From: Candidatus Nanopelagicales bacterium
GTDB lineage: Bacteria > Actinomycetota > Actinomycetes > S36-B12
Direction: 5' to 3'
DNA: 64,000 nt
Assembly: GCA_040398845.1 (NCBI GenBank)
Contig: JBBATH010000002.1
Location: 75,559 to 139,558, forward strand
The translations under genes were made by a program, and so were the position numbers. Below the pieces are notes generated by a model, which was not told where the DNA came from, ran no database searches, and saw nothing but the letters and a program-made list of their open reading frames with translations. Positions 10,928 to 64,000 of this stretch are shown in pieces. Positions within the stretch are counted from its first letter, which is position 1; every line of letters begins with the position of its first letter.

Positions 10928-11356
10928 TTTCCCTATCCCTACTCATCCCCAAGGTTTTCACTTGAGTCATATCCACCGTGAATCCCGATGAGTTATGCAC
11001 TCACGAGGGACTCGTCGGGATTCGGGGTGGATCTGTCCGAATCGGCGCTCACTCGACTCACCACGCATGCCCGGAAACAGCCTGCGCGGCAAACAGCCTG
11101 ATGATCAGCGCTTCCCTAGAGGCTCTCGCGCTGCCAGCCCCTCGGTTCGCCGAACTGGTTGACCACGCATCGGACACTCACCTGTCCCGACTCGTTCGAC
11201 TACTCGTGCGTCTGCGCAAAATATCCAAATAAAGGCACGACGCCACCAGCGCCGCTTTGTGGAGTCAGTTTCGTGCGGCAGGTGCTCTATCTCGTAAACC
11301 TGAGCCACCCATGGGCTACGGTCCTTTATGCAGGCTGCGCGAAGGGAGGACCGGTC

Positions 11357-11998: not shown

Positions 11999-13237
11999 CT
12001 ACGTCTTCCCGCTGGGCCAGTCACGGTCAGGAGCGGCACCTGGTGCCGGCAACGTGACGCCGGCTTCGAGGTCGGCGAGGAGGTCAAGCAGGCCGGTGGC
12101 TTCCCAGGTGCGGTTGCGCTTGCCTTGCGACGCCCGGGTGAGCACGCCCGCGGATTCAAGTTGGAGGAGGGCGTCGTTGACAACGGCCTTGGTTCGCCCG
12201 GTGGCGGCCACCGCGACGGGGCCGGAGATCATGGGGTGCGCGGGCATGACATCGATGAGAGCCCAGGCTACGGAGTCCGCGCGCGGATTCGCGGCCGTGC
12301 CAAGCATCGCCCGCCACTGGTCCTGGAGGGCCTCCACCCGCGCGAGGTAGCGGCTGGCCAGCCCCGCGGACTGGGCAGTCGCCGCGGCGAAGGTCGTCAG
12401 CCAGGCGTCCACGTCCCCGCGCGCATAGGCGTCCAGCCCCGCGATGTAGGCGCCCGTGTCGCCAGCGAGCACGACGCTGATCGGCGGCACGTACATCGGG
12501 GTCAGCCCACGCCGCCGGAGCACGACGTGGATAAGGGCCCGGCCGATGCGTCCGTTGCCGTCCAGGAACGGGTGGATGACCTCGAACTGAGCATGCACCA
12601 GGCCGGCCTGGATCACCGGCGGCAGCGCCACATCGTTGATCGAAGCGCACAGGTCCTCCAGCAGTCGTGGGACCTCCTGCGGCGGTGGTCCCACGAAGCT
12701 GGCCCCGCACGGGTTGTAGTTGTTCCCGCCGATCCAGATCTGCTCGGTGCGCACGACGCCGGCGACGTGGGCGTTCGCGACCGTAGCCATCAGCGCGGCG
12801 TGAATGCTCACCAAATCGTTGAGCGTCACCGCGCTCGAACTGGTGGCATGGTCGATGGCGAGCTCCATCGCGTCGATGTTCGCCAGGATCTCCGCCGCCG
12901 TGGATCCGACCTTCCGCCCAGTCTCGAGCCGCGCCTCCGCACGCGCCAGGTCGCGGGCGTCGACCTGCATGCCCTCCACCTTCGAGGATGCGATCGACTC
13001 CGTGCGCAGCAGCAGCCGGGCCAGCGGCGGCAAAGCAGGCAGGGCGCGCGCATTCAACCGGTGGACGGCAGTCTCCGCATCGGATACCACCCCCACCAGG
13101 TCCGCTGAAAACAGCTCGTCGAAATCGGACAGCTCGTGAGGAACGAACGACTCGTAATGGCAGGCACGCCGGAACCTGGGCGGCGCATACCGAGCAGGGT
13201 CGTACTCCCACGCCCGACGCACCAGAGTGCCGCGCAT
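11999..13237 (-). CDS. Fic family protein (AMPylase-type) with N-terminal inhibitory helix and C-terminal wHTH
   Basis: Fic motif HPFLDGNGRIGRAL. Upstream motif SSKVEG fits (S/T)xxxE(G/N). 412 aa. Confidence 0.85.
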   Translation of the reverse strand: MRGTLVRRAWEYDPARYAPPRFRRACHYESFVPHELSDFDELFSADLVGVVSDAETAVHRLNARALPALPPLARLLLRTESIASSKVEGMQVDARDLARAEARLETGRKVGSTAAEILANIDAMELAIDHATSSSAVTLNDLVSIHAALMATVANAHVAGVVRTEQIWIGGNNYNPCGASFVGPPPQEVPRLLEDLCASINDVALPPVIQAGLVHAQFEVIHPFLDGNGRIGRALIHVVLRRRGLTPMYVPPISVVLAGDTGAYIAGLDAYARGDVDAWLTTFAAATAQSAGLASRYLARVEALQDQWRAMLGTAANPRADSVAWALIDVMPAHPMISGPVAVAATGRTKAVVNDALLQLESAGVLTRASQGKRNRTWEATGLLDLLADLEAGVTLPAPGAAPDRDWPSGKT

Positions 13238-13467: not shown

Positions 13468-14226
13468 CTAGTCGGCGTTCTTCTCATAGAGCAGCCGCAG
13501 GCCGAGCAGGGTGAGATCTGGCTCATGATGGGTAATGGTGAGCGACTCAGGGACCACGATCGGTGCGAGACCACCGGTCGCGACAACCGCGGTCACGTCG
13601 CCAAGCTCCTCGATGATCCGGTCGACAAGTCCGTCGACCTGTCCAGCAAAGCCATAGAGCGCGCCGGACTGGAGCGCCTCGACGGTGTTCTTGCCGATAA
13701 CCGACTTGGGTCGGACGAGCTCGACCTTGCGAAGTTGCGCGGCGCGCTGGGCGAGTGCATCAAGGGAGATCTCGATCCCCGGAGCAAGAGCGCCGCCGAG
13801 GAACTCTCCCTTCGCCGACACGACATCGAGGTTCGTTGAGGTCCCAAAGTCGACAACGATGCATGGCCCGCCGAAAAGATGGTGGGCCGCAATCGTATTG
13901 ACGATGCGATCGGCACCCACCTCCTTGGGGTTGTCGGTGAGCACCGGCACGCCGGTCTTGATCCCCGGCTCGACGATGACCGTCGGAACATCGTCGAAAT
14001 ACCGTCCGAGCATCATCCGCATCTCGCGCAGCACAGCCGGGACTGTGCTGCACAACACGATCCCGGTGACCGGCTCCTGATCGGCGAGGAGTCCGCGAAA
14101 GGTGAGGACCATCTCGTCGGCGGTCGTGCGGGCATCGGTCTTGATGCGCCAGGAATTCAGGAGGATGTCGCCGTCGAAGAGACCCAGGACAGTGTTCGTG
14201 TTTCCGACGTCAATCGCGAGCAGCAC
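13468..14226 (-). CDS. coaX: type III pantothenate kinase
   Basis: MLLAIDVGNTNTVLGLF..., DFGTSTN, ATGGLA motifs. 252 aa. Confidence 0.9.
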   Translation of the reverse strand: MLLAIDVGNTNTVLGLFDGDILLNSWRIKTDARTTADEMVLTFRGLLADQEPVTGIVLCSTVPAVLREMRMMLGRYFDDVPTVIVEPGIKTGVPVLTDNPKEVGADRIVNTIAAHHLFGGPCIVVDFGTSTNLDVVSAKGEFLGGALAPGIEISLDALAQRAAQLRKVELVRPKSVIGKNTVEALQSGALYGFAGQVDGLVDRIIEELGDVTAVVATGGLAPIVVPESLTITHHEPDLTLLGLRLLYEKNAD

Positions 14227-15114
14227 TCACGTCTCCTGTCGTAGGTCGGCGCCAATGTCGAGCACCGGCGCTGAGTGGGTGAGTGCGCCGACCGCGATGT
14301 AGTCGACTCCTGTCGCCGCGACCTCCGCCGCGTTCATGAGGTTCAGGCCGCCCGACGCCTCAAGCCGGGCGCGTCCGGCGGTCCGCTCGACCGCAATGAT
14401 CATTTGGGCGGACGTGAAATTGTCAAGCAATACGAGGTCGGCTCCCGCCTCGAGCACCTCGTCCAACTGCTCCATCGAGTCGACTTCGACCTCTACCGGG
14501 ACATCGGGAAAAGCCCGCCGCACGGCCTCGAACGCCGCGGCAACCCCGCCGGCTGCGAGCACGTGGTTGTCCTTCACCAGTGCAGCATCAGACAGTGACA
14601 TTCGGTGATTCTGCCCCCCACCGCACCGCACCGCGTACTTCTCAAGCCGGCGCATGCCGGGTGTGGTCTTTCTCGTATCGCGGACGGCAGCCTTCGTCCC
14701 GACGACGGCATCAGCCCACGCCCTCGTCAGGGTGGCGATGCCGCCGAGGTGGCCGAGCATGTTCAAAGCCGGGCGTTCTGCCCGGAGAAGCTCGTGGGTG
14801 AGCCCGGTCACCGAAATAAGGACGTCGCCCGGCTCGACCCGGTCGCCATCGCTCGCGCCGAACATGATCTCGAGGTCGTCGTCGCCGCTGACCGCCATGA
14901 ACACTGCTGCTGCAACAGGAATCCCCGCCGCAATGCCAGCCCCGCGGGCCACGAGGTCCAAGGTGGCGCGCTGACCCGGCGGGACTGTCGCCACAGTCGT
15001 GACGTCGACTCCGCCGTCAAGATCCTCCTCGATCGAGGCGAGAACCAACGACTCGAGGGCTTTGGGATCAAGCTGCGCATCCTCGAGCATGCGCGACACC
15101 GTCGCACCGAACAT
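14227..15114 (-). CDS. nadC: nicotinate-nucleotide diphosphorylase (carboxylating)
   Basis: TRKTTPGMRRLEKYAVRCGGGQNHRMSLSDAALVKDNH. The start is trimmed to Met-29 of the track ORF to clear the nadB stop at 15152; the exact start is uncertain. Confidence 0.85.
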   Translation of the reverse strand: MFGATVSRMLEDAQLDPKALESLVLASIEEDLDGGVDVTTVATVPPGQRATLDLVARGAGIAAGIPVAAAVFMAVSGDDDLEIMFGASDGDRVEPGDVLISVTGLTHELLRAERPALNMLGHLGGIATLTRAWADAVVGTKAAVRDTRKTTPGMRRLEKYAVRCGGGQNHRMSLSDAALVKDNHVLAAGGVAAAFEAVRRAFPDVPVEVEVDSMEQLDEVLEAGADLVLLDNFTSAQMIIAVERTAGRARLEASGGLNLMNAAEVAATGVDYIAVGALTHSAPVLDIGADLRQET

Positions 15115-15151
15115 TGATGAGGCCGTCACATTTGACCTGCGTCGGGCAGCA

Positions 15152-16831
15152 TTATTCGGGTCCTCCGATGGGCTCGGTTCTCGTGTGCAGCGCACCATTC
15201 TCGTCGATCGAGGTCACGAGCCGGGTTTGCCACCGAGCATCATCGCGCTCGGGGAAGTCCTCGCGCCAATGGGATCCCCTCGTCTCCTCTCGGAGCAGTG
15301 CATGACGAGTGAGGACGCAGGCGAGGGCGTGGATGTTCGTTGTCTCCCAGTCCTCCGTGCACGGCCTGGCCCCAGCCACAGTCGAGAGTGGCCACAACTC
15401 CCCCTCGGCGAGGTCGAGCGAGGCCTGGCTGCGCAGGACACCAACATGCTCGTCCATCGTCTGCTGCATGGCACGCCGGACGCTGTGAGGCAGCAACCCG
15501 GGACGCTGTCGGCCCACGGCTGGATCGCGAACAATCGCCTCGGTTCCTGCGAGCACCTCACCGATCCTTCCTGCGAATACCAACCCCTCGAGTAGTGAAT
15601 TCGATGCCAGCCGATTCGCGCCGTGTACCCCCGTGCACGCGACCTCGCCGCACGCAAACAGGCCGGGGATCGAGGCCCGACCCCAGTGATCGGTACGGAC
15701 CCCACCCGACACGTAGTGCTGCGCTGGCGCGACTGGAATGAGATCTGTTACCGGATCGATGCCACGCGTGCGACATGACTCGAGGATTGTTGGGAACCGG
15801 CTGATCCACATGTCGGCACCGAGGTGTCGCCCATCAAGCCACACATGGCTCGATCCTGAGGCCCGCATGCGACGCATGATCGCCTTCGCGACGACATCGC
15901 GAGGAGCGAGATCGGCCATCGGGTGCACGGCCTCCATGAACCGGGTACCGTCGATGTCGCGAAGGCAGGCGCCCTCGCCGCGGACAGCTTCTGAGACGAG
16001 GGGCTGCTGTCCCTGGGCCAGCGGTCCGAGCCACATGACGGTCGGATGGAACTGCACGAATTCAAGATCGGCGATCTCGGCGCCCGCCCGCATCGCCACG
16101 GCAACACCGTCGCCCGTTGAGACGTAGGGATTCGTCGTCTGACCGAAGACCTGACCAAACCCACCGGTCGCGAGCACGACATTCGGTGCGAGCGCCGCAC
16201 CGACGCCGCCGCGCTGGCCGGTGCCCATGACGTGCAGGGTGACGCCCTGCGCAGCACCGGTGCTGTCGAGGAGCAGATCGAGCACGAGGGCATTCTCGAC
16301 GAGCTCGATTCCGGCGTCGCGTGCGACCGCAGCGACAAGCGCCCTGGAGACCTCGGCCCCGGTAGCGTCACCACCTGCGTGCGCGATCCGGTCATGATGG
16401 TGGCCACCCTCACGGGTCAGTGAAATCGCACCGGTGGCATCGGTGTCGAATCGGGCGCCGAGTGCGATGAGCTGCCTGAGCGCCGGCGGCCCTTGGGTCA
16501 CGAGGATCCGGACTGCCTCCTCATCACACAATCCGACGCCTGCAACGAGGGTGTCGGCGAGATGCTCCTCGGGAGAGTCGTCGTCGGCGAGCGCGGCGGC
16601 GATGCCACCCTGCGCCCACTGGGTCGAGCCCTCGCTCACGCGGGCCTTCGTCACGAGCAGAACGGTCTTGCCGGCTGCACGAGCATGAAGGGCGGTCGTA
16701 AGGCCGGCGATGCCCGAACCTACGACGATGACATCTGCTCTTGTGGTCCACCCCGGCTCATCAGCGGAAAGCCTCGTCGGGATAAGTGCCGATGCGCTCA
16801 ACTCAGGCACGCCACCATGGTGATTGTTCAT
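15152..16831 (-). CDS. nadB: L-aspartate oxidase
   Basis: FAD motif DVIVVGSGIAGL; flavoprotein core HYVSGGVRTD and ACTGVHGANRLASNSLLE. 559 aa. Confidence 0.9.
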   Translation of the reverse strand: MNNHHGGVPELSASALIPTRLSADEPGWTTRADVIVVGSGIAGLTTALHARAAGKTVLLVTKARVSEGSTQWAQGGIAAALADDDSPEEHLADTLVAGVGLCDEEAVRILVTQGPPALRQLIALGARFDTDATGAISLTREGGHHHDRIAHAGGDATGAEVSRALVAAVARDAGIELVENALVLDLLLDSTGAAQGVTLHVMGTGQRGGVGAALAPNVVLATGGFGQVFGQTTNPYVSTGDGVAVAMRAGAEIADLEFVQFHPTVMWLGPLAQGQQPLVSEAVRGEGACLRDIDGTRFMEAVHPMADLAPRDVVAKAIMRRMRASGSSHVWLDGRHLGADMWISRFPTILESCRTRGIDPVTDLIPVAPAQHYVSGGVRTDHWGRASIPGLFACGEVACTGVHGANRLASNSLLEGLVFAGRIGEVLAGTEAIVRDPAVGRQRPGLLPHSVRRAMQQTMDEHVGVLRSQASLDLAEGELWPLSTVAGARPCTEDWETTNIHALACVLTRHALLREETRGSHWREDFPERDDARWQTRLVTSIDENGALHTRTEPIGGPE

Positions 16832-17679
16832 TTGGTGGCCACCGTGCAGGCCATGTTGTCGAGGAGTCGGGTCGCACCCACTCGAACAGCGACGAGGGCT
16901 CGGCCGGCTCCCGGACGTGCCAGGCCCAGCGCCGGATCAGTGACGACGAGGTAGTCGACCTCAAGTCCTGGGCTTCCCGACAGCAGTGCGAGTCCTGCTC
17001 GCACCCCGGCGTCGGCGCCCTCAACCTCAGCCACGCGGACGGTCTCCTCGAGAGCCCGAGGAACCAACGACGCAAGAGATCGCTCGACTGCGCTCAGGTA
17101 GCGATTGCGGCTGCTCATTGCCAGCCCATCGTGCTCGCGCACTGTCGGGACTGGTACCACCTTCGTCGGAAAGTTCAACTGAGACACCATTTCCTTGATG
17201 AGGATGAACTGTTGGTAGTCCTTCTCCCCGAAGAGTGCGAGGTCCGGTGCGGTGAGGTGCAAGAGTTTCGCCACCACCGTAAGCATGCCCCTGAAGTGAC
17301 CGGGGCGCACGGCGCCCTCAAGAATCTCGCCCACGGAACCTGGATCGACGGTGATCGAGGCGGCGGTCGAACCCTCTCCGTAGATCTCGGCCACCGTCGG
17401 CGCGTAGACGAGATCCGCGCCCGCAGCGCTGCAGATCCTCACGTCATCCTCGAGTGACCGCGGATACCGGTCAAAATCCTCGCCCTTACCAAACTGCATT
17501 GGGTTGACGAAGTCGGTGACGATGACGCAGCCGTCAGCACCGATCGCAGCACGCGCGTCCCTCACCAGGGCCGCGTGCCCCTCATGAAGGGCGCCCATCG
17601 TCATCACGACGGCGCACGGAACCGCCGGGGAGCGAGCCGCGACGAGGGCTCCGTGTGAATTCACGAGCACGGCACTCAT
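16828..17679 (-). CDS. panC: pantoate--beta-alanine ligase
   Basis: TMGALHEGHAALV (HxGH) and FGEKDYQQ motifs. Overlaps both neighbours by 4 nt. Confidence 0.9.
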   Translation of the reverse strand: MSAVLVNSHGALVAARSPAVPCAVVMTMGALHEGHAALVRDARAAIGADGCVIVTDFVNPMQFGKGEDFDRYPRSLEDDVRICSAAGADLVYAPTVAEIYGEGSTAASITVDPGSVGEILEGAVRPGHFRGMLTVVAKLLHLTAPDLALFGEKDYQQFILIKEMVSQLNFPTKVVPVPTVREHDGLAMSSRNRYLSAVERSLASLVPRALEETVRVAEVEGADAGVRAGLALLSGSPGLEVDYLVVTDPALGLARPGAGRALVAVRVGATRLLDNMACTVATK

Positions 17680-18566
17680 CGGCCCCTCCGCTCGCCGAGG
17701 ACTTCGAGTAGTGCCTCGGCATCGCGGGCCTTCAGCAGACCGGCACCGACGGCGCGGTCAGCAGTTAGGCGCCCGAGCGCTCGGTACGCGCTCGCCGCCT
17801 CTGGTGAGACCTCCTCGATCGCCCGAACATGATCTGCTACCGAAGCGGCGTCACCGCGGGCCACCGGTCCGGTGAGCGCCTGATCACCCCACCTGAGTGC
17901 GTTGTCGAGCGATGCACCAAGGAGCGGTGCCACGAGTCGCTGTGGGTCCGCAATTCCGGCGTGACGAAGCAGGTCTAGGCACTGGCTCACGAGCGTGATG
18001 AGGTAGTTGGAGCCGTATGCGAGGGCCGCGTGATAGGTCGACCGGTGCTCCTCCGGGACCCAGAACGGATCCCCACCCATCTCGACCACGAGGGCCTCAG
18101 CCACCGGACGAAGCACCTCCGGAGCCGTCACCCCGAAGGGGCAGTCACTTAGCCGGCTCAAGTCCAGGCTGGTGCCGGTAAACGTCATGACTGGGTGTAG
18201 GGCAAGGGGTAGTGCGCCCATTCGCGTCGCCGGGTCAAGCACCTCAATGCCAAACCGTCCTGCCGGGTGGCACCAGAACTGCCCCGGATGAATATTCCTC
18301 GTCTCCGCGAGGCCCGCGATGAGTCCTGGCAGGGCGTCATCGGGGACCGCCACGAGCACCAGATCGACATCGAGCACCACGGCAGGAAGATCGAGGATCG
18401 GCACACCTGGCAGCAGCGCCTCGGCTCGAAGCCGCGAGACATCAGAAACGGCGGTGACCGCCACGAGTTCATGTCCGGCGCGACGCAGCGCAGCGCCGAG
18501 CACCGCGCCGACGCGTCCGGTGCCGATGATGCCGACGCGCAGTCTCGGCGGGCCCAGATCGCTCAC
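17676..18566 (-). CDS. Rossmann-fold / DUF2520 oxidoreductase-like protein (pan-cluster associated)
   Basis: GIIGTGRVGAVLGAAL dinucleotide fold, and a C-terminal TGPVARGDAASV segment typical of DUF2520. Confidence 0.7.
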   Translation of the reverse strand: MSDLGPPRLRVGIIGTGRVGAVLGAALRRAGHELVAVTAVSDVSRLRAEALLPGVPILDLPAVVLDVDLVLVAVPDDALPGLIAGLAETRNIHPGQFWCHPAGRFGIEVLDPATRMGALPLALHPVMTFTGTSLDLSRLSDCPFGVTAPEVLRPVAEALVVEMGGDPFWVPEEHRSTYHAALAYGSNYLITLVSQCLDLLRHAGIADPQRLVAPLLGASLDNALRWGDQALTGPVARGDAASVADHVRAIEEVSPEAASAYRALGRLTADRAVGAGLLKARDAEALLEVLGERRGR

Positions 18567-35902: not shown

Positions 35903-35991
35903 GATGAACCTACGAGCCTGTTCTTTACGTTTGGAGTGCTTTCGGTGTTACTTCGACAACGCCTCGGTGAACAATCGGGGGCGAGATGAAC
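35903..35991 (-). promoter_or_regulatory. GTTCAYC heptamers upstream of pstS (possible PHO-box units)
   Basis: On the minus strand, GTTCATC (35991-35985), GTTCACC (35972-35966) and GTTCATC (35909-35903) lie in the 128-nt pstB-pstS spacer. Their spacing is not the canonical 11 nt. Confidence 0.3.
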
Positions 35992-56428: not shown

Positions 56429-57724
<1,296 letters not shown>

Positions 57725-57937
57725 CTAGGGGTGAGCGTGGCCGGGGAGGCAACGGCTGAATCGATAGCGCTGGGATCTGTGCTGGTGGACTGGCGGAGCG
57801 CTACTGCCCCCCGAGAAGGAGCGCTCCACCAGCCGCTGAAGGCCGATGGACTCGACCCGCGTCGGCGAGCTGCAGCAAGGCATCCCGCGACAGGAACACA
57901 CTCCCAGCAGGGTCTGACAATCCCCCATCCCTCATCC

Positions 57938-58010
57938 CGCATCTGGCCCAGAATCTGGGTGTGATGAACGAGGCGGGCTCCAAAACGGGCAGATTCGTTC
58001 ATCCGGCCCA
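57938..58010. repeat. palindromic REP/MITE-like element, inverted partial copy
   Basis: CGCATCTGGCCCAGAATCTGGGTGTGATGAACG (57938-57970) is the reverse complement of 47761-47793 with 3 mismatches. An identical-length 25-nt spacer follows, then CGTTCATCCGGCCCAC. Confidence 0.7.
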
Positions 58011-58106
58011 CTCGCAGAGCTACAAATGCGTCGCCGAGGCGGTCTGAATACGGATGCCACCATCGTGCCTCGTATAAAGAAAGCCACCCTCATAGGGGAA
58101 GAGAAA

Positions 58107-58535
58107 CTATTGCCAGGCTCCAAGGATTCCGCCCATGACGACAAGCGCCGCGATATCGCCACCGACTTCGATTGCCCACACGACGAAACCCTGACCACCC
58201 ATGAGCCGGTGGCCCAGCGACGTGGTGGCCGAGAACCCGACTCCGACGATAAGTCCCATCACGGCACCGAGCATGAGGCCAACCTCGGTGCCGCTGTCGC
58301 GAAGCACGCCGATGATGAGGGCAAGGACGACTGCCTGAACGAACGCGGCAACACCGATGAGACCGAATGTCACGGCCATCGAACCGGAGCCCCCCGGCTT
58401 GTCCTCCGGCGAACGGCCGATTGCCTTCCACCAGATCGGGTAGAACGTCCTTGGCCCGAACCATATTGAGCCCACGACGAATGCTGCGATCGTGCTCACC
58501 ACAACGGCGAGCCAGTTGACAGTAGTGAAATCCAT
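58107..58535 (-). CDS. DUF1761 membrane protein
   Basis: MDFTTVNWLAVVVSTIAAFVVGSIWFGPRTF is the typical DUF1761 N-terminus. 4 TM helices. Confidence 0.65.
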   Translation of the reverse strand: MDFTTVNWLAVVVSTIAAFVVGSIWFGPRTFYPIWWKAIGRSPEDKPGGSGSMAVTFGLIGVAAFVQAVVLALIIGVLRDSGTEVGLMLGAVMGLIVGVGFSATTSLGHRLMGGQGFVVWAIEVGGDIAALVVMGGILGAWQ

Positions 58536-58573
58536 GGCGCGCACAGTAGCAGCCGGGCCCTGGAATGGGCCGA

Positions 58574-59275
58574 CTATTTAGCCTGCGGGGAACTCCGGCC
58601 GAACAGTTGCGCCGGCCTTCCCCGTCGTCCCTCAGCGGCAGCCGGCAGCGACTCAAGTTCGTCGATCATGACCCGGCGAAAGGTGTCCTTTTGGAGCTCG
58701 CGGCCAGCCACCGCCTCGTGCACGACGCGCAGGTCGGCGATGGTGAAGGAATCCGGCAGCAGCCTGCGTGGGTCCGGGAGCGCTCGATACTCCTGTCGTA
58801 GTCGCTCGGTCGCGAGATCGATGATTGCGAGGTGGTCGTATGGCAAGCGCAGTCGCGACGGGAGTACCCCGATGCGCGTGTGAGCCGGTTTTCGCAGCCG
58901 TTCCAGGTCAGCGAACGCGAGCACATCGAGGTGGGCGACCGAAAGCACCCAGCCGCGATCATCTCGCGCCGGGTCGTCGAAGACATGGAGTTGCTGCGGC
59001 TCCCGACCCGTCACCCCTGCCTTTACTTCAAGGGATCGGCGCACGGCTTCGGCGAGGGTCTCCCCCTCATGGAGGAAGGTGCCCGGCAGCGCCCAATCCG
59101 CGAGCGCGCCAACCGATTGTGGGGGTCGCCGAACGAGCAAGATGCCCAGTCGCGCAGCGTTGCCAACGGCAGGGGGGATCACGGTCATGAGGGCCGTATC
59201 TACCGCAACTGACGGCCGCGGATAGTGAGCCAACGCTCGACCGTCGCCGTCACGAAAAGCCTCGTCCCGAACCAC
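58574..59275 (-). CDS. NrtR-like regulator (degenerate Nudix domain plus C-terminal winged helix)
   Basis: Nudix box GTFLHEGETLAEAVRRSLEVKAGV lacks the REx2EE glutamates. The C-terminal FTIADLRVVHEAVAGRELQKDTFRRVMIDEL matches the NrtR wHTH (FTL..LQ.vyE.ilg..ldkrNFRRK). Confidence 0.75.
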   Translation of the reverse strand: MVRDEAFRDGDGRALAHYPRPSVAVDTALMTVIPPAVGNAARLGILLVRRPPQSVGALADWALPGTFLHEGETLAEAVRRSLEVKAGVTGREPQQLHVFDDPARDDRGWVLSVAHLDVLAFADLERLRKPAHTRIGVLPSRLRLPYDHLAIIDLATERLRQEYRALPDPRRLLPDSFTIADLRVVHEAVAGRELQKDTFRRVMIDELESLPAAAEGRRGRPAQLFGRSSPQAK

Positions 59276-59295
59276 CAGTCCATTGTGTCGGACAG

Positions 59296-59351
59296 TTGCG
59301 CTACTGTCTTCCTTATTAGCGCAATTTTAATCTAATTAGTCAGGTTGCGCT
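59296..59351. promoter_or_regulatory. candidate operator repeats in the AT-rich divergent spacer
   Basis: TTGCGCT (59296-59302) and AGCGCAA (59318-59324) form an inverted repeat. CTAATTAG (59332-59339) is a palindrome. A third TTGCGCT lies at 59345-59351. Confidence 0.35.
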
Positions 59352-59379
59352 TTCCGGGTCCGAGGAGAGCAAGGAGCAC

Positions 59380-60276
59380 ATGATGACGAGGACGAGACAG
59401 ATCCCCCAACTGCATGTCGGACGCGGCACACAGGCCGGACCGCTCACCGTGTTTCCCGTCTGGTCGAGTGAACCGGAGCTGACCAGCCTGTCAATGGGCG
59501 TCAGCGCCCAGATCGAGGCAGGTGAACGCGAAGGCAGCCCCGTGGTCGGCGAGCTCATCGTCAAGAACACCGGATCCACCACCGCGCTGCTCGTCGAGGG
59601 TGAACTGCTCGAAGGCGGCTGGCAGCACCGGGCACTGCAGCACGACCTCATCCTCAAACCGGGCAGCACCATGGTTGCCCCAGTCGTCTGCGTTGAGGCA
59701 GGCAGGTGGAGCGGTGACGGCAGGGTCCTTACCCGCAATGCGCGACGCGCATCAGGCAACGTCCGCGCAGCCATGCGCTTACACGACGACCACGTCCGTC
59801 AAGGTCGCGTGTGGAGCGAGGTGTCGGCCTACGATCATTCGATGGGGGCTTCGCGGACCTCGTCCTACGTCGATCATCTCGACCGACTCCACTCATCGAA
59901 TGACCGTCCAAAGACCCCGGTCCTTGATGGCCAGCGCGGGGTCATCGTCGGCCTTGCCGGCCAGCCGGTGCTCCTCGAGGTTTTCCCCTCGCAAGCATGC
60001 CTCGCCGCAGGACTCCCAGACCTCCTCGCCGCACTCATGTTCGATGCACTCGCAAGCGGCGGCCCGTCCGAGTTGACCCCAGGTCGGCGGGCAAGACGCC
60101 TCGTCGAGCGTCTCGACGGCCGGCACGCGCACCGCTCACCCGCGGTCGATGCCGGATCCGGCGAAGCCTTCGTCCTCGACACTCAATACGCAGCCCTCCG
60201 AGGAGTTGCCCTTGATGATTCTTGGGCCCACCTCACTGCGTTCAATCGCCGCCACCGACTCGTGGAGGTCTCATGA
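59380..60276 (+). CDS. ARPP-like protein (ARG and Rhodanese-Phosphatase-superfamily Associated Protein family, from memory)
   Basis: 298 aa with RBS aaggag. The N-terminal LHVGRGTQAGPLTVFPVW motif is what I recall from proteins encoded next to ARG genes. The stop overlaps the next ATG (ATGA). The family call is unverified. Confidence 0.55.
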   Translation: MMTRTRQIPQLHVGRGTQAGPLTVFPVWSSEPELTSLSMGVSAQIEAGEREGSPVVGELIVKNTGSTTALLVEGELLEGGWQHRALQHDLILKPGSTMVAPVVCVEAGRWSGDGRVLTRNARRASGNVRAAMRLHDDHVRQGRVWSEVSAYDHSMGASRTSSYVDHLDRLHSSNDRPKTPVLDGQRGVIVGLAGQPVLLEVFPSQACLAAGLPDLLAALMFDALASGGPSELTPGRRARRLVERLDGRHAHRSPAVDAGSGEAFVLDTQYAALRGVALDDSWAHLTAFNRRHRLVEVS

Positions 60277-61787
60277 CCATCGCCAAGCCCAGCGCACCAT
60301 CGCTCTCCACGGTTCAAGCCGACCGCGCCGCCGGCGTACTCCTCGGCCTCGCATGCGGTGACGCACTCGGGGCCGGCTACGAGTTCCAGCCGGCGCGAAT
60401 CCATGGCGAGCCTGTCGACATGGTCGGCGGCGGCGGATTCGGCTGGGCACCCGGAGAATGGACTGACGATACGTCGATGGCGGTCGCGATCGCGGAAACG
60501 TCATCCACGGGCGTCGACCTCAGATCATCCACGGCCCTCGACGCCATCACGGTGCGCTTCGTCAACTGGGCCAAGGATGCACCAGATGTCGGCATCCAGA
60601 CAGGGTCCGTCCTCCGCTCGATCGCAGCCGATCCAACGAGCGCTGCCGCCGCAACCAGCGCCCGCGAGCACTTCGCCAGGACAGGCCGCACTGGCAACGG
60701 ATCCCTTATGAGAACAGCGCCTGTCGCCCTTGCGTACCTGCATGACCCCGAGGCACGGGGGCAGGCTGCCCGCTCCATCAGCGGGCTCACCCACGGTGAT
60801 GATGATGCTGGCGACGCGTGCGCCCTGTGGTGCGATGCCATCGCCCATGCAGTGATTCACGGCAATCTCGAGGGCCTAAGGCTCGCACTCGCGGCCCTAC
60901 CGGCAGACCGGGCTCGAGTCTGGTCCGAACGACTGGACCACGCCGAGTCGGTTGCACCGCACGAGATCCCACACAACGGCTGGGTTGTCGCGGCACTCCA
61001 GGCTGCCTGGTCGGCCATCACCAGGACACCGGTCCCCACCGATGATCCGGCCAACGGCCGCTTCCCCGCCCAGCACCTCACCCTGGCCCTCGATACCGCC
61101 GTACGCGCCGGCGACGATACCGACACCGTTGCCGCCATCGCCGGCGGACTCCTCGGGGCACGGTGGGGAGCATCAGCGATTCCCACGCAATGGCAACGGA
61201 TTCTGCACGGCTGGCCGGGAGTTCGAGCCCGTGACCTCATCCGCCTCGGGCTGCTCACCGCCCGCGCTGGCACGCCCGACGCTTCCGGCTGGCCCCTCGA
61301 AGCAATTCACGATTACTCGGGCTACCCCGGGGCCGATGCCCTCGCGACTCACCCACACGACTCCGGCGTCCTGCTCTCCGGCGTCCGGCATCTCAGGCAT
61401 CTGCCGGAGGGGGTCGATGCCGTCGTATCCCTCTGCCGGCTCGGAGCGGACGAGGTACCACCGTCCGGGGTAACGGCCGGTGATCACCTCGAGGTCTGGC
61501 TCGTCGACAGCGACGACCCTGCCGTCAACCCGAACCTCTGCTGCGTTCTCACTCAGGCAGCCGATGCAGTCGCCGCGCTGCGCGCCGAGGGTCGAACGGT
61601 GCTTCTGCACTGCGTTCAGGCGCAGAGCCGGACACCTGCTGTCGCCGCCCGGTACTCCGCCCGGCACCGCGGAATCGCGATCAGTCAGGCGTTCGCAGAC
61701 GTGCAGTCGGCACTCCCCCACGCCCATCCGAACGCCACTTTCCGAGCCGCCCTCGAAAGCCTGTCACCCGGACTTCCCGCCGGCTAG
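60273..61787 (+). CDS. ADP-ribosylglycohydrolase fused to a CX5R (dual-specificity/PTP-like) phosphatase domain
   Basis: ARG motifs GLACGDALGAGYEF, GEWTDDTSMAVAIAE and GDDTDTVAAIAGGLLGARWGASAIP. The C-terminal P-loop is VLLHCVQAQSRTPAV (Cys-X5-Arg). 504 aa from the ATG at 60273. Confidence 0.8.
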   Translation: MTIAKPSAPSLSTVQADRAAGVLLGLACGDALGAGYEFQPARIHGEPVDMVGGGGFGWAPGEWTDDTSMAVAIAETSSTGVDLRSSTALDAITVRFVNWAKDAPDVGIQTGSVLRSIAADPTSAAAATSAREHFARTGRTGNGSLMRTAPVALAYLHDPEARGQAARSISGLTHGDDDAGDACALWCDAIAHAVIHGNLEGLRLALAALPADRARVWSERLDHAESVAPHEIPHNGWVVAALQAAWSAITRTPVPTDDPANGRFPAQHLTLALDTAVRAGDDTDTVAAIAGGLLGARWGASAIPTQWQRILHGWPGVRARDLIRLGLLTARAGTPDASGWPLEAIHDYSGYPGADALATHPHDSGVLLSGVRHLRHLPEGVDAVVSLCRLGADEVPPSGVTAGDHLEVWLVDSDDPAVNPNLCCVLTQAADAVAALRAEGRTVLLHCVQAQSRTPAVAARYSARHRGIAISQAFADVQSALPHAHPNATFRAALESLSPGLPAG

Positions 61788-64000
61788 CCCGCCAGCAATT
61801 GCGAGGCCAGGGTGAAGTCGGCCGGCAACGGTTCGTCCAGTCGCCATACGAACGACACTGGACGCTCACCCTGGTGCGACACGTACTGCGCTGAGCCCAG
61901 GAAAAGATAGGGCCTGGTGCCAAACTCCCAGTCCGGGCTCTCCCGCGCAAACAGGAGTATGCGGTGCCCCTCCGCAGCATGCCGGATGTATCGCTGGATT
62001 TTCGCCGACCTCTCGCGGTCGGCATGCTGCGACTGCCAATGGATGAGGCGGTCCGAAATGGCATAGTCGCGGTACATGGTGTGAGGTGAATACCGGCCCT
62101 CAACCTTCTGCCAGGTCATGTTGAACACGTCAGCATCAAACGCTCTGGCATGCACGACCCCCTCACGATTGTCGTACGGCGACTTGACCATGCTTCCCTC
62201 ACCCACCGCGGTGAGCATCTCCGCGCGGCTGTAACGGGCGTGGATGCTCAGGGGTAGGTCTGGAACCCTCGGACCGATCGGTGTCGTGACATGGGAAAAG
62301 CGGTCAGCCACCACCTCCCACGCCTGGAGGAGTTCCTCCCGGAAGGCCCCGCAGACATGGGCCGCCAACAGACCATCAACAACGGATCCGTGCCCAATCT
62401 TCGGCCAGATTGCGTGGTAAAGCATGAGTGCGAGGCGCTGCTCCGTGGCACTGAGATCGGGAATCGACCGCACGTAGTCGGCCTCGCCGATGAACCGGCG
62501 GTACGCATCGAGCCGTGGCTGATCGTCGATATGGAGCATCGATGCAACCCGCTTCAGCAACCTCGACTCGCCGTCGGTCGACGGCGCCGTCGTGATCCCA
62601 GCCATGCGGACGAGATCGGTCCAGTTGCGTCCGGTCGATCCGTAGATGTCTGCGAGGTCTAAGCCCGACTCTGCCAGATAGTTTGTGAGCCGATACTCGA
62701 TCGCACTACTCCGACCAGCATGCTCGCGAATATCCGCTGCGATGGCGGCCTTCGAGGATGGGAGTGCGGACTTGATGTTCTCGAGGACAAGCCGCGAAGC
62801 AACCTCATCCATCCGGATAAACGCGCCCGACGGCAGATAGGGGAAGCCCTGGGCAATCGCCTGTTCGAGTCGACGGCGGCCGATACCGGTGAGCGCACGA
62901 AACCGGATGTCGTAGCGAAACTCCTTGCGCTGCATCCCAACGAGGTCGAGCACCGTGAGGAACGACTTGGCGGAGGTCTTACGCAAGCCTCGCCCAAGCT
63001 GCTGCAGAAAAACGGTGCCCGACTCGGTCGGGCGGAGCATGACGACCGTATCGACCTCGGGGATGTCGACGCCTTCGTTGAAGATATCGACCGAGACGAT
63101 GGCCGAGATGGCCCCCGCCCGCAGGTCTCGGATCGCTTGGGCACGAACCGGCTTCGGCGTTTGCGCGTCAAGGGCAATCGACGCAATGCCCGCCTCGTTG
63201 AGCCGCAGGGCGACGAAGCGCGCGTGACGCACCCCGCCCGCGAAGACGAGCGCCTTCATCGTCAGGGGGTCCGTCACCACGTGGGCGATCTCGCGCAAGA
63301 CCCAATTCATGATGACGTCATTGCCGGTGAGGACCTCATCGAGATCATCAGCGTTGTAACGTCCAGCGTTCCAACGGGCCCGGCTAAAGTCGAGTTCTTC
63401 GCTCCCGACTGCGAAATAGTGGAAGGGCACAAGGAGGTTGCGCTCTAGTGCGTCCCAGAGCCTCAGCTCCGAGGCAATGCGGCCGTCGAACCATTGCGTG
63501 ACGTCGATGCCGTCGGGCCGCTCAGGGGTCGCGGTGAGACCGAGCATGATCTTGGGCCGCAGGTAGTCGAGGAGTCGTTGGTACGAAACGGCTCCGGCAT
63601 GATGGAATTCGTCGACGATGACGATGTCGTAGTAGTCAGCAGCCACCCCGACCAGACGACTCGATGCCGAGAGGGACTGGATCGACGCGAACACCTGATC
63701 GCCCGCAACCGGTTCATGCCCGTCGACGAGCAGCTCGCCGAACGAGGCATCCTTGAGTACCTGCCGGAAGACCCCAAGCGATTGGGTGAGGATTTCCTTG
63801 CGGTGCGCGACGAACAACAACCGCGGGTAACGACCCGGAGTGCTCGCCCACCTGCGTTCCTCCGCCAATCGCCGATAGTCGAATGCAGCAACGAGGGTCT
63901 TGCCCGTGCCAGTTGCAGCGACGACGAGATTGCGGTGTCGTTGGTAGACCTCGCGTTCGCGCCGCAGATCGTCGAGCATCTCCTGCTGAAACGGATACGG
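61784..64000 (-). CDS. DExH-box helicase with C-terminal DUF3427-like domain; N-terminus beyond window end
   Basis: Motif I AATGTGKT, II DEFHH, III TATPER, VI QQLGRGLR. The C-terminal HARYSRAEML...YRDYAISDRLIHWQSQ...ILLFARE...YLFLGSAQYVSHQGERPVSFVWRL fits my memory of DUF3427. The frame stays open to 64000 (PYPFQQEMLDDL). Confidence 0.8.
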   Translation of the reverse strand, partial: PYPFQQEMLDDLRREREVYQRHRNLVVAATGTGKTLVAAFDYRRLAEERRWASTPGRYPRLLFVAHRKEILTQSLGVFRQVLKDASFGELLVDGHEPVAGDQVFASIQSLSASSRLVGVAADYYDIVIVDEFHHAGAVSYQRLLDYLRPKIMLGLTATPERPDGIDVTQWFDGRIASELRLWDALERNLLVPFHYFAVGSEELDFSRARWNAGRYNADDLDEVLTGNDVIMNWVLREIAHVVTDPLTMKALVFAGGVRHARFVALRLNEAGIASIALDAQTPKPVRAQAIRDLRAGAISAIVSVDIFNEGVDIPEVDTVVMLRPTESGTVFLQQLGRGLRKTSAKSFLTVLDLVGMQRKEFRYDIRFRALTGIGRRRLEQAIAQGFPYLPSGAFIRMDEVASRLVLENIKSALPSSKAAIAADIREHAGRSSAIEYRLTNYLAESGLDLADIYGSTGRNWTDLVRMAGITTAPSTDGESRLLKRVASMLHIDDQPRLDAYRRFIGEADYVRSIPDLSATEQRLALMLYHAIWPKIGHGSVVDGLLAAHVCGAFREELLQAWEVVADRFSHVTTPIGPRVPDLPLSIHARYSRAEMLTAVGEGSMVKSPYDNREGVVHARAFDADVFNMTWQKVEGRYSPHTMYRDYAISDRLIHWQSQHADRERSAKIQRYIRHAAEGHRILLFARESPDWEFGTRPYLFLGSAQYVSHQGERPVSFVWRLDEPLPADFTLASQLLAG

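Follow-up and report, generated by a model that had tools for sequence, protein, structure and literature searches.

A catalytically degenerate NrtR-family regulator and a predicted 20-bp operator at an actinobacterial ADP-ribosylglycohydrolase operon

We analyzed a 64,000-nt stretch of DNA (hereafter “the window”) from Candidatus Nanopelagicales bacterium (assembly GCA_040398845.1, contig JBBATH010000002.1, positions 75,559 to 139,558), with a focus on a putative transcriptional regulator and the operon that diverges from it. The regulator, a protein of 233 residues with Pfam NUDIX and NrtR_WHD domains, is encoded on the minus strand from a GTG start (58574..59275). Beyond a divergent control region of 104 nt (59276..59379, 49% GC), the plus strand encodes ARPP-1 (59380..60276, 298 residues, ATG at 59380; full-length match to PF20208, E 3e-59), the first gene of the operon, followed by a 504-residue ADP-ribosylglycohydrolase (ARG) fused to a C-terminal DSP/PTP-like phosphatase (60273..61787; PF03747, E 6e-52). 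The control region contains a predicted operator, TTAGCGCAATTTTAATCTAA, a 20-bp palindrome of the form TTAGCGCA-ATTT-TAATCTAA at 59316..59335. By comparison with known proteins and related loci, we establish the architecture and fold of the regulator, the loss of its catalytic glutamates, its linkage to ARG and ARPP genes, and a conserved operator that tracks ARG genes. Our preferred reading, to which we assign a probability of roughly 0.7, is that the protein is a local, ADP-ribose-type NrtR repressor controlling the ARPP-1/ARG-phosphatase operon through this one operator.

The NrtR architecture reported for this protein in an initial annotation, which had been made from the sequence alone, was confirmed. 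An N-terminal Nudix-fold effector domain is recognized by Pfam (PF00293, residues 45–104, 31 bits against a 21.1-bit cutoff), and the AlphaFold2 (AF2) model matches NrtR Nudix domains including 3GZ8; a C-terminal NrtR-type winged helix-turn-helix is found by Pfam (PF21906, residues 171–225, 43 bits against a 27-bit cutoff), in the alignment to SoNrtR, and by Foldseek. The best sequence match in the PDB was SoNrtR (3GZ5, E 2e-17, regulator residues 40–225 aligned to SoNrtR residues 34–223; identity to SoNrtR is 30%). The best structural match of the AF2 model (pLDDT 85, pTM 0.81) was full-length AraR, with a TM-score of 0.69–0.81, and DNA-bound SoNrtR gave 0.69–0.73, both over ~215–220 columns. 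Judged by the sequence match to SoNrtR and the match of the predicted structure to AraR and SoNrtR, the regulator is a member of the NrtR family.

The public annotation of the same protein (P0002, 204 residues) begins at Met30. Residues 7–29 are kept throughout the 21 aligned homologues (D9, G12, L15, Y18, P19, P21, S22, A24, V25 and D26 do not vary at all), and the GTG at 59275 is the sole in-frame start upstream of this conserved block, which makes the 233-residue form and the 104-nt spacer most likely correct and the annotated Met30 start probably wrong. Truncation at Met30 would remove part of the ligand pocket, including Y18, the equivalent of the adenine-stacking Phe15 of SoNrtR.

The Nudix box of the regulator reads G-x-E72-x7-R80-S-L-E-V-K85-A-G-V. 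In the SoNrtR alignment, R80-S-L-E-V-K85-A-G-V stands in the place of REUxEExGU, so that the REUxEE glutamates are replaced (S81, V84 and K85), and K85 is invariant among the 21 aligned homologues; the signature of an active Nudix hydrolase (GX5EX7REUXEEXGU with its catalytic glutamates) is absent. The initial annotation had already reported the loss of these glutamates, and the alignment agrees, although it moves the register of the box by one residue. A degenerate box is usual among NrtR proteins (Rodionov et al. 2008, PMC2330246; for MsNrtR, PMC6800001). On these sequence features, the Nudix domain cannot plausibly join in catalysis. Iyer et al. (2022) suggested in passing that such a domain may still be an enzyme that degrades the ADP-ribose produced by ARG, with regulation as a secondary role. 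For the present protein we regard this as scarcely credible, given the replaced glutamates with their invariant K85, the precedent of MsNrtR, whose box (RQUxEK) is comparably, if more mildly, degenerate and which has no detectable hydrolase activity and is freed from DNA by ADP-ribose (PMC6800001), and that of Slr1690, which has a perturbed signature and is nearly inactive (PMC2330246).

Next, we examined the genomic neighborhood of related regulators. One genome per species was scanned, which gave 492 relatives of the regulator; the best 80 were fetched, and the 75 loci with upstream sequence were counted. These loci come from Mycobacterium/Mycolicibacterium, Nakamurella, Geodermatophilus, Klenkia, Blastococcus, Arthrobacter, Actinotalea, Dermatophilaceae, and others. 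An ARG-phosphatase homologue was directly divergent from the regulator in 37 of the 75 loci, and ARPP-1 in 21, nearly all of which have ARG farther along the same locus. Overall, ARG or ARPP-1 was the divergent neighbor at 58 of 75 loci (60 when L025 and L067 are added on inspection), and tblastn placed ARG within the ~6-kb flanks of 62 of 75. The other divergent neighbors were a calcineurin-like phosphoesterase (Metallophos), a TY-Chap1 chaperone, a Schlafen/AlbA_2 protein, or an unrelated gene; the Metallophos, TY-Chap1 and vWA neighbors seen across the related loci are known ARG-system modules. No relatives of the regulator were found on viral contigs. Among the closest relatives, L002 and L003 keep the local gene order of the window next to eno. 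Separately, L002, L003 and L005 come from metagenome-assembled genomes labeled “Bifidobacterium breve” with environmental-looking isolate names, and this label looks wrong.

The upstream regions of the 75 loci share a palindromic motif. In an unbiased count of 8-mers in these regions, TGCGCTAA/TTAGCGCA was the most enriched (39 of 75 loci against 0.11 expected) and the variant half-site TTAGATCA came second (18 of 75 against 0.08 expected). The consensus operator of the clade is TTAGCGCA-N4-TGCGCTAA, or TTAGCGCAnATnTGCGCTAA when symmetrized, with a length of 20 bp and the core GCGCA-N4-TGCGC. At least 11 of its 16 specified positions were matched in 73 of the 75 upstream regions; by comparison, among 1500 pieces drawn at random from these loci 2 exceeded 11, and no shuffled upstream region exceeded 12. 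At a threshold of ≥12 bits, 71 of 75 loci have one or more sites no farther than 260 nt from the regulator start (two or three sites at 15 loci), against only nine sites elsewhere in 859 kb. Six of these nine stand directly upstream of ARG genes that are not linked to the regulator (in five loci: L018, L020, L023, L030 and L054). A 22-bit site ~5.5 kb from the regulator (L040:11526–11545) lies 22 nt upstream of a 102-residue open reading frame that is followed by a vWA gene, which suggests that vWA proteins may belong to the regulon in Dermatophilaceae; L023 also has a similar outlying site at 11046. One site inside a GC-rich open reading frame (L058:5156, 20.7 bits) was treated as a chance match. 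At a Rhodococcus plasmid locus that lay outside the training set (regulator 44% identical), regulator and ARG are divergent and sites of 29 and 21 bits occur. Perfect operators were also detected in two metagenome loci (L138:12037–12056 and L162:287–306), 66 nt upstream of an ARPP-1/DUF4236-DUF2510/DSPc operon with neither ARG nor the regulator adjacent. Together with the divergent neighbors, the presence of the operator at 71 of 75 loci strongly supports the earlier proposal of local regulation of the ARG operon.

For the window itself, we scored the sequence with a position weight matrix (PWM) trained only on regulators ≤57% identical. The palindrome at 59316–59335 reached 26.2 bits, compared with 7.3 bits for the next best position in 64 kb and a maximum of 15.5 bits over 20 shuffles. 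Within it, the central AGCGCAA (59318–59324) forms the core of the left half-site, and the right half-site TAATCTAA (reverse complement TTAGATTA) is a degenerate form of the common variant TTAGATCA. The same 20 bp are the best conserved block in the alignment of the spacer with L002–L006, and the two half-site types are swapped in L006, which a palindromic operator allows.

Given its family, the regulator could instead be a canonical NrtR that controls genes of NAD biosynthesis or salvage elsewhere, with an incidental ARG neighborhood: NrtRs usually regulate NAD genes, and the genome scan comprised the 64-kb window. In the window, nadB (15152–16831) and nadC (14227–15198) lie on the minus strand ~43 kb from the regulator, as the initial annotation had it, within a panC-nadB-nadC-coaX string (13468–18566, minus strand) that is preceded by a Rossmann/DUF2520 gene; no nadA is found inside this cluster and no NrtR-type site upstream of it. 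The PWM scan returned a single operator in the 64 kb and no site near panC-nadB-nadC. The mycobacterial NrtR box, GTTTTCGA-N7-TCGAAAAC, has two matches in the window with three mismatches each (one at 35938, one inside the ARG gene), neither of them upstream of nad genes. Across the related loci, NadB or NadC was a neighbor at 0 of 75, against 58–60 of 75 for ARG/ARPP, and the operator accompanies ARG where ARG and regulator are unlinked. NAD-linked homologues appear only at ≤41% identity; the more distant plasmid-borne homologues in this range adjoin nadM-pncB or band-7 and PpnK-like genes. Finally, the regulator scores 84.3 bits on the NCBIfam model for the NrtR equivalog (NF050029), for which the cutoff is 400, and by this measure it is no equivalog of the NAD regulator NrtR. 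We consider control of NAD genes very improbable and this alternative already largely refuted. As a side observation, a gene for a Fic/DOC family protein (Fic_N and Fic, 412 residues; 11999–13237, minus strand) adjoins the coaX/nadC/nadB/panC cluster.

The control region also contains the repeats that the initial annotation had pointed out. Its 49% GC compares with 63.9% for the window, and only 0.3% of 104-nt windows are equally AT-rich, in line with the AT-rich spacer between divergent genes described in the initial annotation. TTGCGCT has 14 copies in 64 kb, three of which fall inside 56 nt of the spacer (59296, 59318 on the minus strand, and 59345), and these repeats, like the element CTAATTAG (59332–59339), stand where they had been placed. 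The copy at 59318 is the AGCGCAA core of the operator. The two flanking copies (GTTGCGCT), both on the plus strand and 49 nt apart, resemble half-sites: the one near the regulator start (59296..59302) scores at best −3.4 bits as a full site, and the one on the ARPP-1 side (59345..59351) −9.6 bits. At the former, AGCGCA is kept in L002–L004 and not in L006; the latter is kept in L003 and L004 and altered in L002 and L006. Of CTAATTAG, only the ATTAG part, where it coincides with the outer end of the operator, is conserved across L002–L006, so CTAATTAG does not hold as a conserved palindrome. A near-perfect 18-bp palindrome, GACAGTTGC/GCTACTGTC (59291–59308), is centered on the first TTGCGCT and was also detected as a terminator-like hairpin (59290–59309); it is not conserved in L002–L006. 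A search of Rfam over 57600–59600 gave nothing credible.

These repeats raise the question of whether the whole array (TTGCGCT twice, AGCGCAA and CTAATTAG) is the operator set, with the flanking copies acting as auxiliary half-sites that recruit further dimers. The density of TTGCGCT in the spacer, the presence of two or three full sites at 15 of 75 loci, and the retention of both flanking copies, by and large, in L002–L004 speak for this arrangement, although these close relatives are ~78% identical across the whole spacer, and retention there carries little weight. The low scores of the flanking copies, their loss in L006 and the partial conservation of CTAATTAG speak against it, and on balance we judge the array quite unlikely to be the operator set. 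Of the repeats originally singled out, only the central AGCGCAA falls within the predicted operator. The TTGCGCT copies on either side of it, whose retention is limited to near relatives, may be auxiliary half-sites or promoter elements. The alignment and scores support the 20-bp palindrome at 59316–59335, rather than the TTGCGCT triplet, as the functional element.

We then compared the putative ligand pocket with the ADP-ribose contacts of SoNrtR described by Chang et al. 2015 (PMC4666351; chain numbering is offset by 3 in the alignments). Four of the five adenine/diphosphate contacts are kept: Phe15 (adenine stacking) corresponds to Y18 and Lys76 (alpha-phosphate) to K85, both invariant in the clade, Arg98 (ribose and phosphate) to the likewise invariant R107, and Arg41 (phosphate) to R50, conserved in ≥90% of the clade. 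The contact of Asn43 with the alpha-phosphate is lost, with P52 at this position. In AraR, Lys76 is replaced by Leu, Arg98 by Gly and Asn43 by Phe, which closes the ADP pocket (PMC4666351). Since the regulator keeps contacts where AraR has replaced Lys76 and Arg98, its pocket looks built for an ADP-containing ligand, and an ADP-ribose-like effector is likely.

A related possibility is that the local repressor and its operator hold but that the effector is not free ADP-ribose, i.e., that it is a phosphorylated or processed ADP-ribose derivative or a nucleoside, or that NAD acts as a co-repressor. NdnR senses NAD and AraR arabinose; a phosphatase is fused to ARG at this locus, and Metallophos replaces the phosphatase at others; the inducers proposed by Iyer et al. 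2022 are “ADPr or nucleoside molecules” (PMC9503650); and the Asn43 contact is lost. The four retained contacts argue for an ADP-containing ligand, and we consider a different effector fairly unlikely.

Taken together, these observations lead us back to a dimeric repressor of the NrtR family that would have lost hydrolase activity and kept a pocket for nucleotide-diphosphate sugars. A dimer would bind the single operator at 59316–59335 in the divergent spacer and repress the ARPP-1/ARG-phosphatase operon together with its own gene, and possibly the adjacent DUF1761 gene. ADP-ribose or a close derivative, freed by ARG from modified macromolecules, would bind the Nudix domain when abundant, and the ligand-bound repressor would leave the DNA, leading to induction of the operon. 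The regulator would then provide dedicated local control rather than control of NAD biosynthesis.

Several points weigh against this local ADP-ribose-type repressor. DNA binding at the site, repression, the identity of the ligand, and the overlap of operator and promoter are all features that we infer. The P52 substitution removes one ligand contact, and effectors vary within the family, from ADP-ribose (SoNrtR, MsNrtR) to NAD (NdnR) and arabinose (AraR) (PMC4666351), so that the ligand cannot be read from family membership alone. The 20-bp operator lacks the GT-N7-AC core and 21-bp symmetry typical of NrtR boxes; these features hold for “most” NrtR groups, and divergent groups exist (Rodionov et al. 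2008, PMC2330246). The scan of this genome covered 64 kb, and remote targets are possible. Scanned with the sigma-70 consensus, the spacer showed no promoter, and overlap between operator and promoter is therefore a conjecture here. In mycobacterial orthologues, a TANNNT-type hexamer (TACGCT, within the enriched 8-mer TGTACGCT) lies 16 nt downstream of the right half of the operator and a few bases ahead of a conserved CCGACATG start context, and this position suggests an overlap between the operator and the −35 region of the regulator promoter. Finally, the perfect palindrome also occurs in many unrelated, mostly low-GC metagenome contigs: of 80 loci returned by a scan for it, 77 are without ARG, ARPP or NrtR genes, and only 3 have any of ARG, ARPP and the regulator. 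Chance alone should produce a 16-base pattern in so large a collection, and the metagenome scan therefore says nothing on specificity.

On one low-GC metagenome contig, Ga0256405_10000826 (L114, L148 and L152; GC ~35%), TTAGCGCA-N4-TGCGCTAA occurs in exact form 12 times or more, with no ARG, ARPP or NrtR genes present. These copies would either belong to a repeat family unrelated to the operator or serve a different regulator as its operator.

Upstream of the ARPP-1 ATG, a purine-rich Shine-Dalgarno region, GAGGAGAGCAAGGAG (59362..59376, plus strand), can be read directly. ARG-phosphatase begins with an ATG at 60273 that shares bases with the stop codon of ARPP-1 (ATGA), i.e., the two genes are translationally coupled, and the 504-residue gene call is as in L001. 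Against the PDB, the fusion protein matches 2CWC (E 1e-21) and the dual-specificity phosphatase DUSP 2HCM (E 6e-9). The metal-site motifs GDALG, TDDT, GNGSLMR and DTDT are present and aligned to 2CWC, and the CX5R motif of the phosphatase reads HCVQAQSR; on Pfam, DSPc scores 32 bits on the C-terminal domain, slightly under its 33.5-bit cutoff. On the other side, 29 nt downstream of the regulator, a DUF1761 membrane protein is encoded on the minus strand (58107..58544; PF08570, E 4e-19) and may be co-transcribed with it, a linkage confined to L001–L004. Convergent with ARG-phosphatase, with overlapping stop codons, lies a gene for a 1067-residue PLD-nuclease/helicase/DUF3427 protein (61784–63979, minus strand) that exceeds the window end (full gene L001:784–3987) and is common only to L001 and L002. 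This protein matches the PADLOC model of a type IV methyl-directed restriction enzyme (E 2.5e-250), and its architecture resembles that of SauUSI. The adjacent restriction enzyme lends weak support to a defense-island context. No ART (ADP-ribosyltransferase) or sirtuin domain was found among the neighbors (ARPP-1, the regulator, DUF1761 and the type IV restriction enzyme), and no PADLOC model matches the regulator, ARPP-1 or ARG.

Beyond this locus, it is possible, if doubtful, that the operator marks a dedicated and widespread actinobacterial “ADP-ribose stress” regulon with product-induced positive feedback, which would serve as an inducible defense against phage or toxin ARTs. If so, its members would include ARG-phosphatase, ARPP-1, calcineurin-like phosphatases, and vWA or TY chaperones. 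Basal ARG activity would free ADP-ribose (or a derivative) from ADP-ribosylated host macromolecules, and the Nudix repressor, itself without catalytic activity, would sense it, making this the first such system with a defined and directly testable cis-element. Many mycobacteria and other Actinobacteria have ARG/phosphatase/ARPP systems, which have been proposed on computational grounds to be the first known on the host side to reverse ADP-ribosylation by phage enzymes. The locus alone is what a published prediction would lead one to expect and comes as no surprise; its main value lies in direct testability, with one predicted operator and one operon as a simple handle, and the likely mis-annotated start codon of the regulator is corrected.

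The closest published counterparts are the predicted ARG-centric anti-ADP-ribosylation systems of Iyer, Burroughs, Anantharaman & Aravind (2022, Viruses 14:1977, section 3.8; PMC9503650), which have Nudix-HTH (helix-turn-helix) or WYL regulators. These systems combine an ARG without a linked ART, a phosphatase of the rhodanese-phosphatase superfamily, ARPP, variable chaperones or nucleases, and a negative regulator sensing ADP-ribose, and are proposed, as a hypothesis in the source, to counter ADP-ribosylation by viral enzymes (PMC9503650). Our locus shares the ARG, whose metal-site motifs are intact and which has neither an ART nor a sirtuin next to it, the coupled phosphatase of that superfamily (with its DSPc score just below cutoff), ARPP with a Nudix-HTH one-component regulator, and an actinobacterial setting beside a restriction enzyme; the listed calcineurin-like phosphatase, TY-Chap1 and vWA modules occur in related loci. 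It differs in having no chaperone or Macro/NADAR gene and a Nudix domain that is not plausibly catalytic. Moreover, the accessible part of the paper gives no operator, whereas the 20-bp operator predicted here follows ARG, ARPP and vWA genes.

An earlier parallel is the Streptomyces nrtR1-draG-SCO1765 regulon (Rodionov et al. 2008, NAR 36:2047; motif group Actinobacteria-2a, pathway “ADPR”; PMC2330246), in which an NrtR paralogue with its own motif group is predicted to control ADP-ribosylglycohydrolase and not NAD synthesis. There, the two genes run in the same direction (#nrtR1-draG), without mention of ARPP-1 or a fused phosphatase, whereas ours form a divergon. The Actinobacteria-2a motif, presented in that source as a logo, may or may not coincide with TTAGCGCA-N4-TGCGCTAA. 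We also considered group 2b of the same study, in which nrtX-nrtY might have been ARPP-1 and ARG; this is probably not the case, as plasmid homologues of ~36% identity adjoin band-7 and PpnK-like genes.

Among characterized proteins, SoNrtR (PDB 3GZ5/3GZ6/3GZ8) and MsNrtR (MSMEG_3198) share with the regulator the two-domain fold and a degenerate Nudix box in which Lys takes the place of the last glutamate, and each belongs to an autoregulated divergon whose operator is a palindrome. Their targets, however, are NAD genes (prs-nadV and nadABC, respectively), and their operators span 21–23 bp (a GT-N7-AC core and GTTTTCGA-N7-TCGAAAAC), compared with the 20-bp GCGCA-N4-TGCGC core here. Bacteroides AraR (PDB 5BS6/5DEQ; TM 0.75–0.81), an arabinose-sensing family member, is a further case of an NrtR that serves a non-NAD operon, but its ADP pocket is filled in, whereas the regulator keeps the Lys (K85) and Arg (R107). 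In the available text of the published accounts of ARG/phosphatase/ARPP systems, no operator sequence is given; the motif logos of 2008 lie outside this comparison. The pairing of regulator and ARG is thus a published computational prediction (PMC2330246; PMC9503650) that is rediscovered here, and what this analysis adds to it is an explicit predicted operator together with sequence-based evidence for a regulon.

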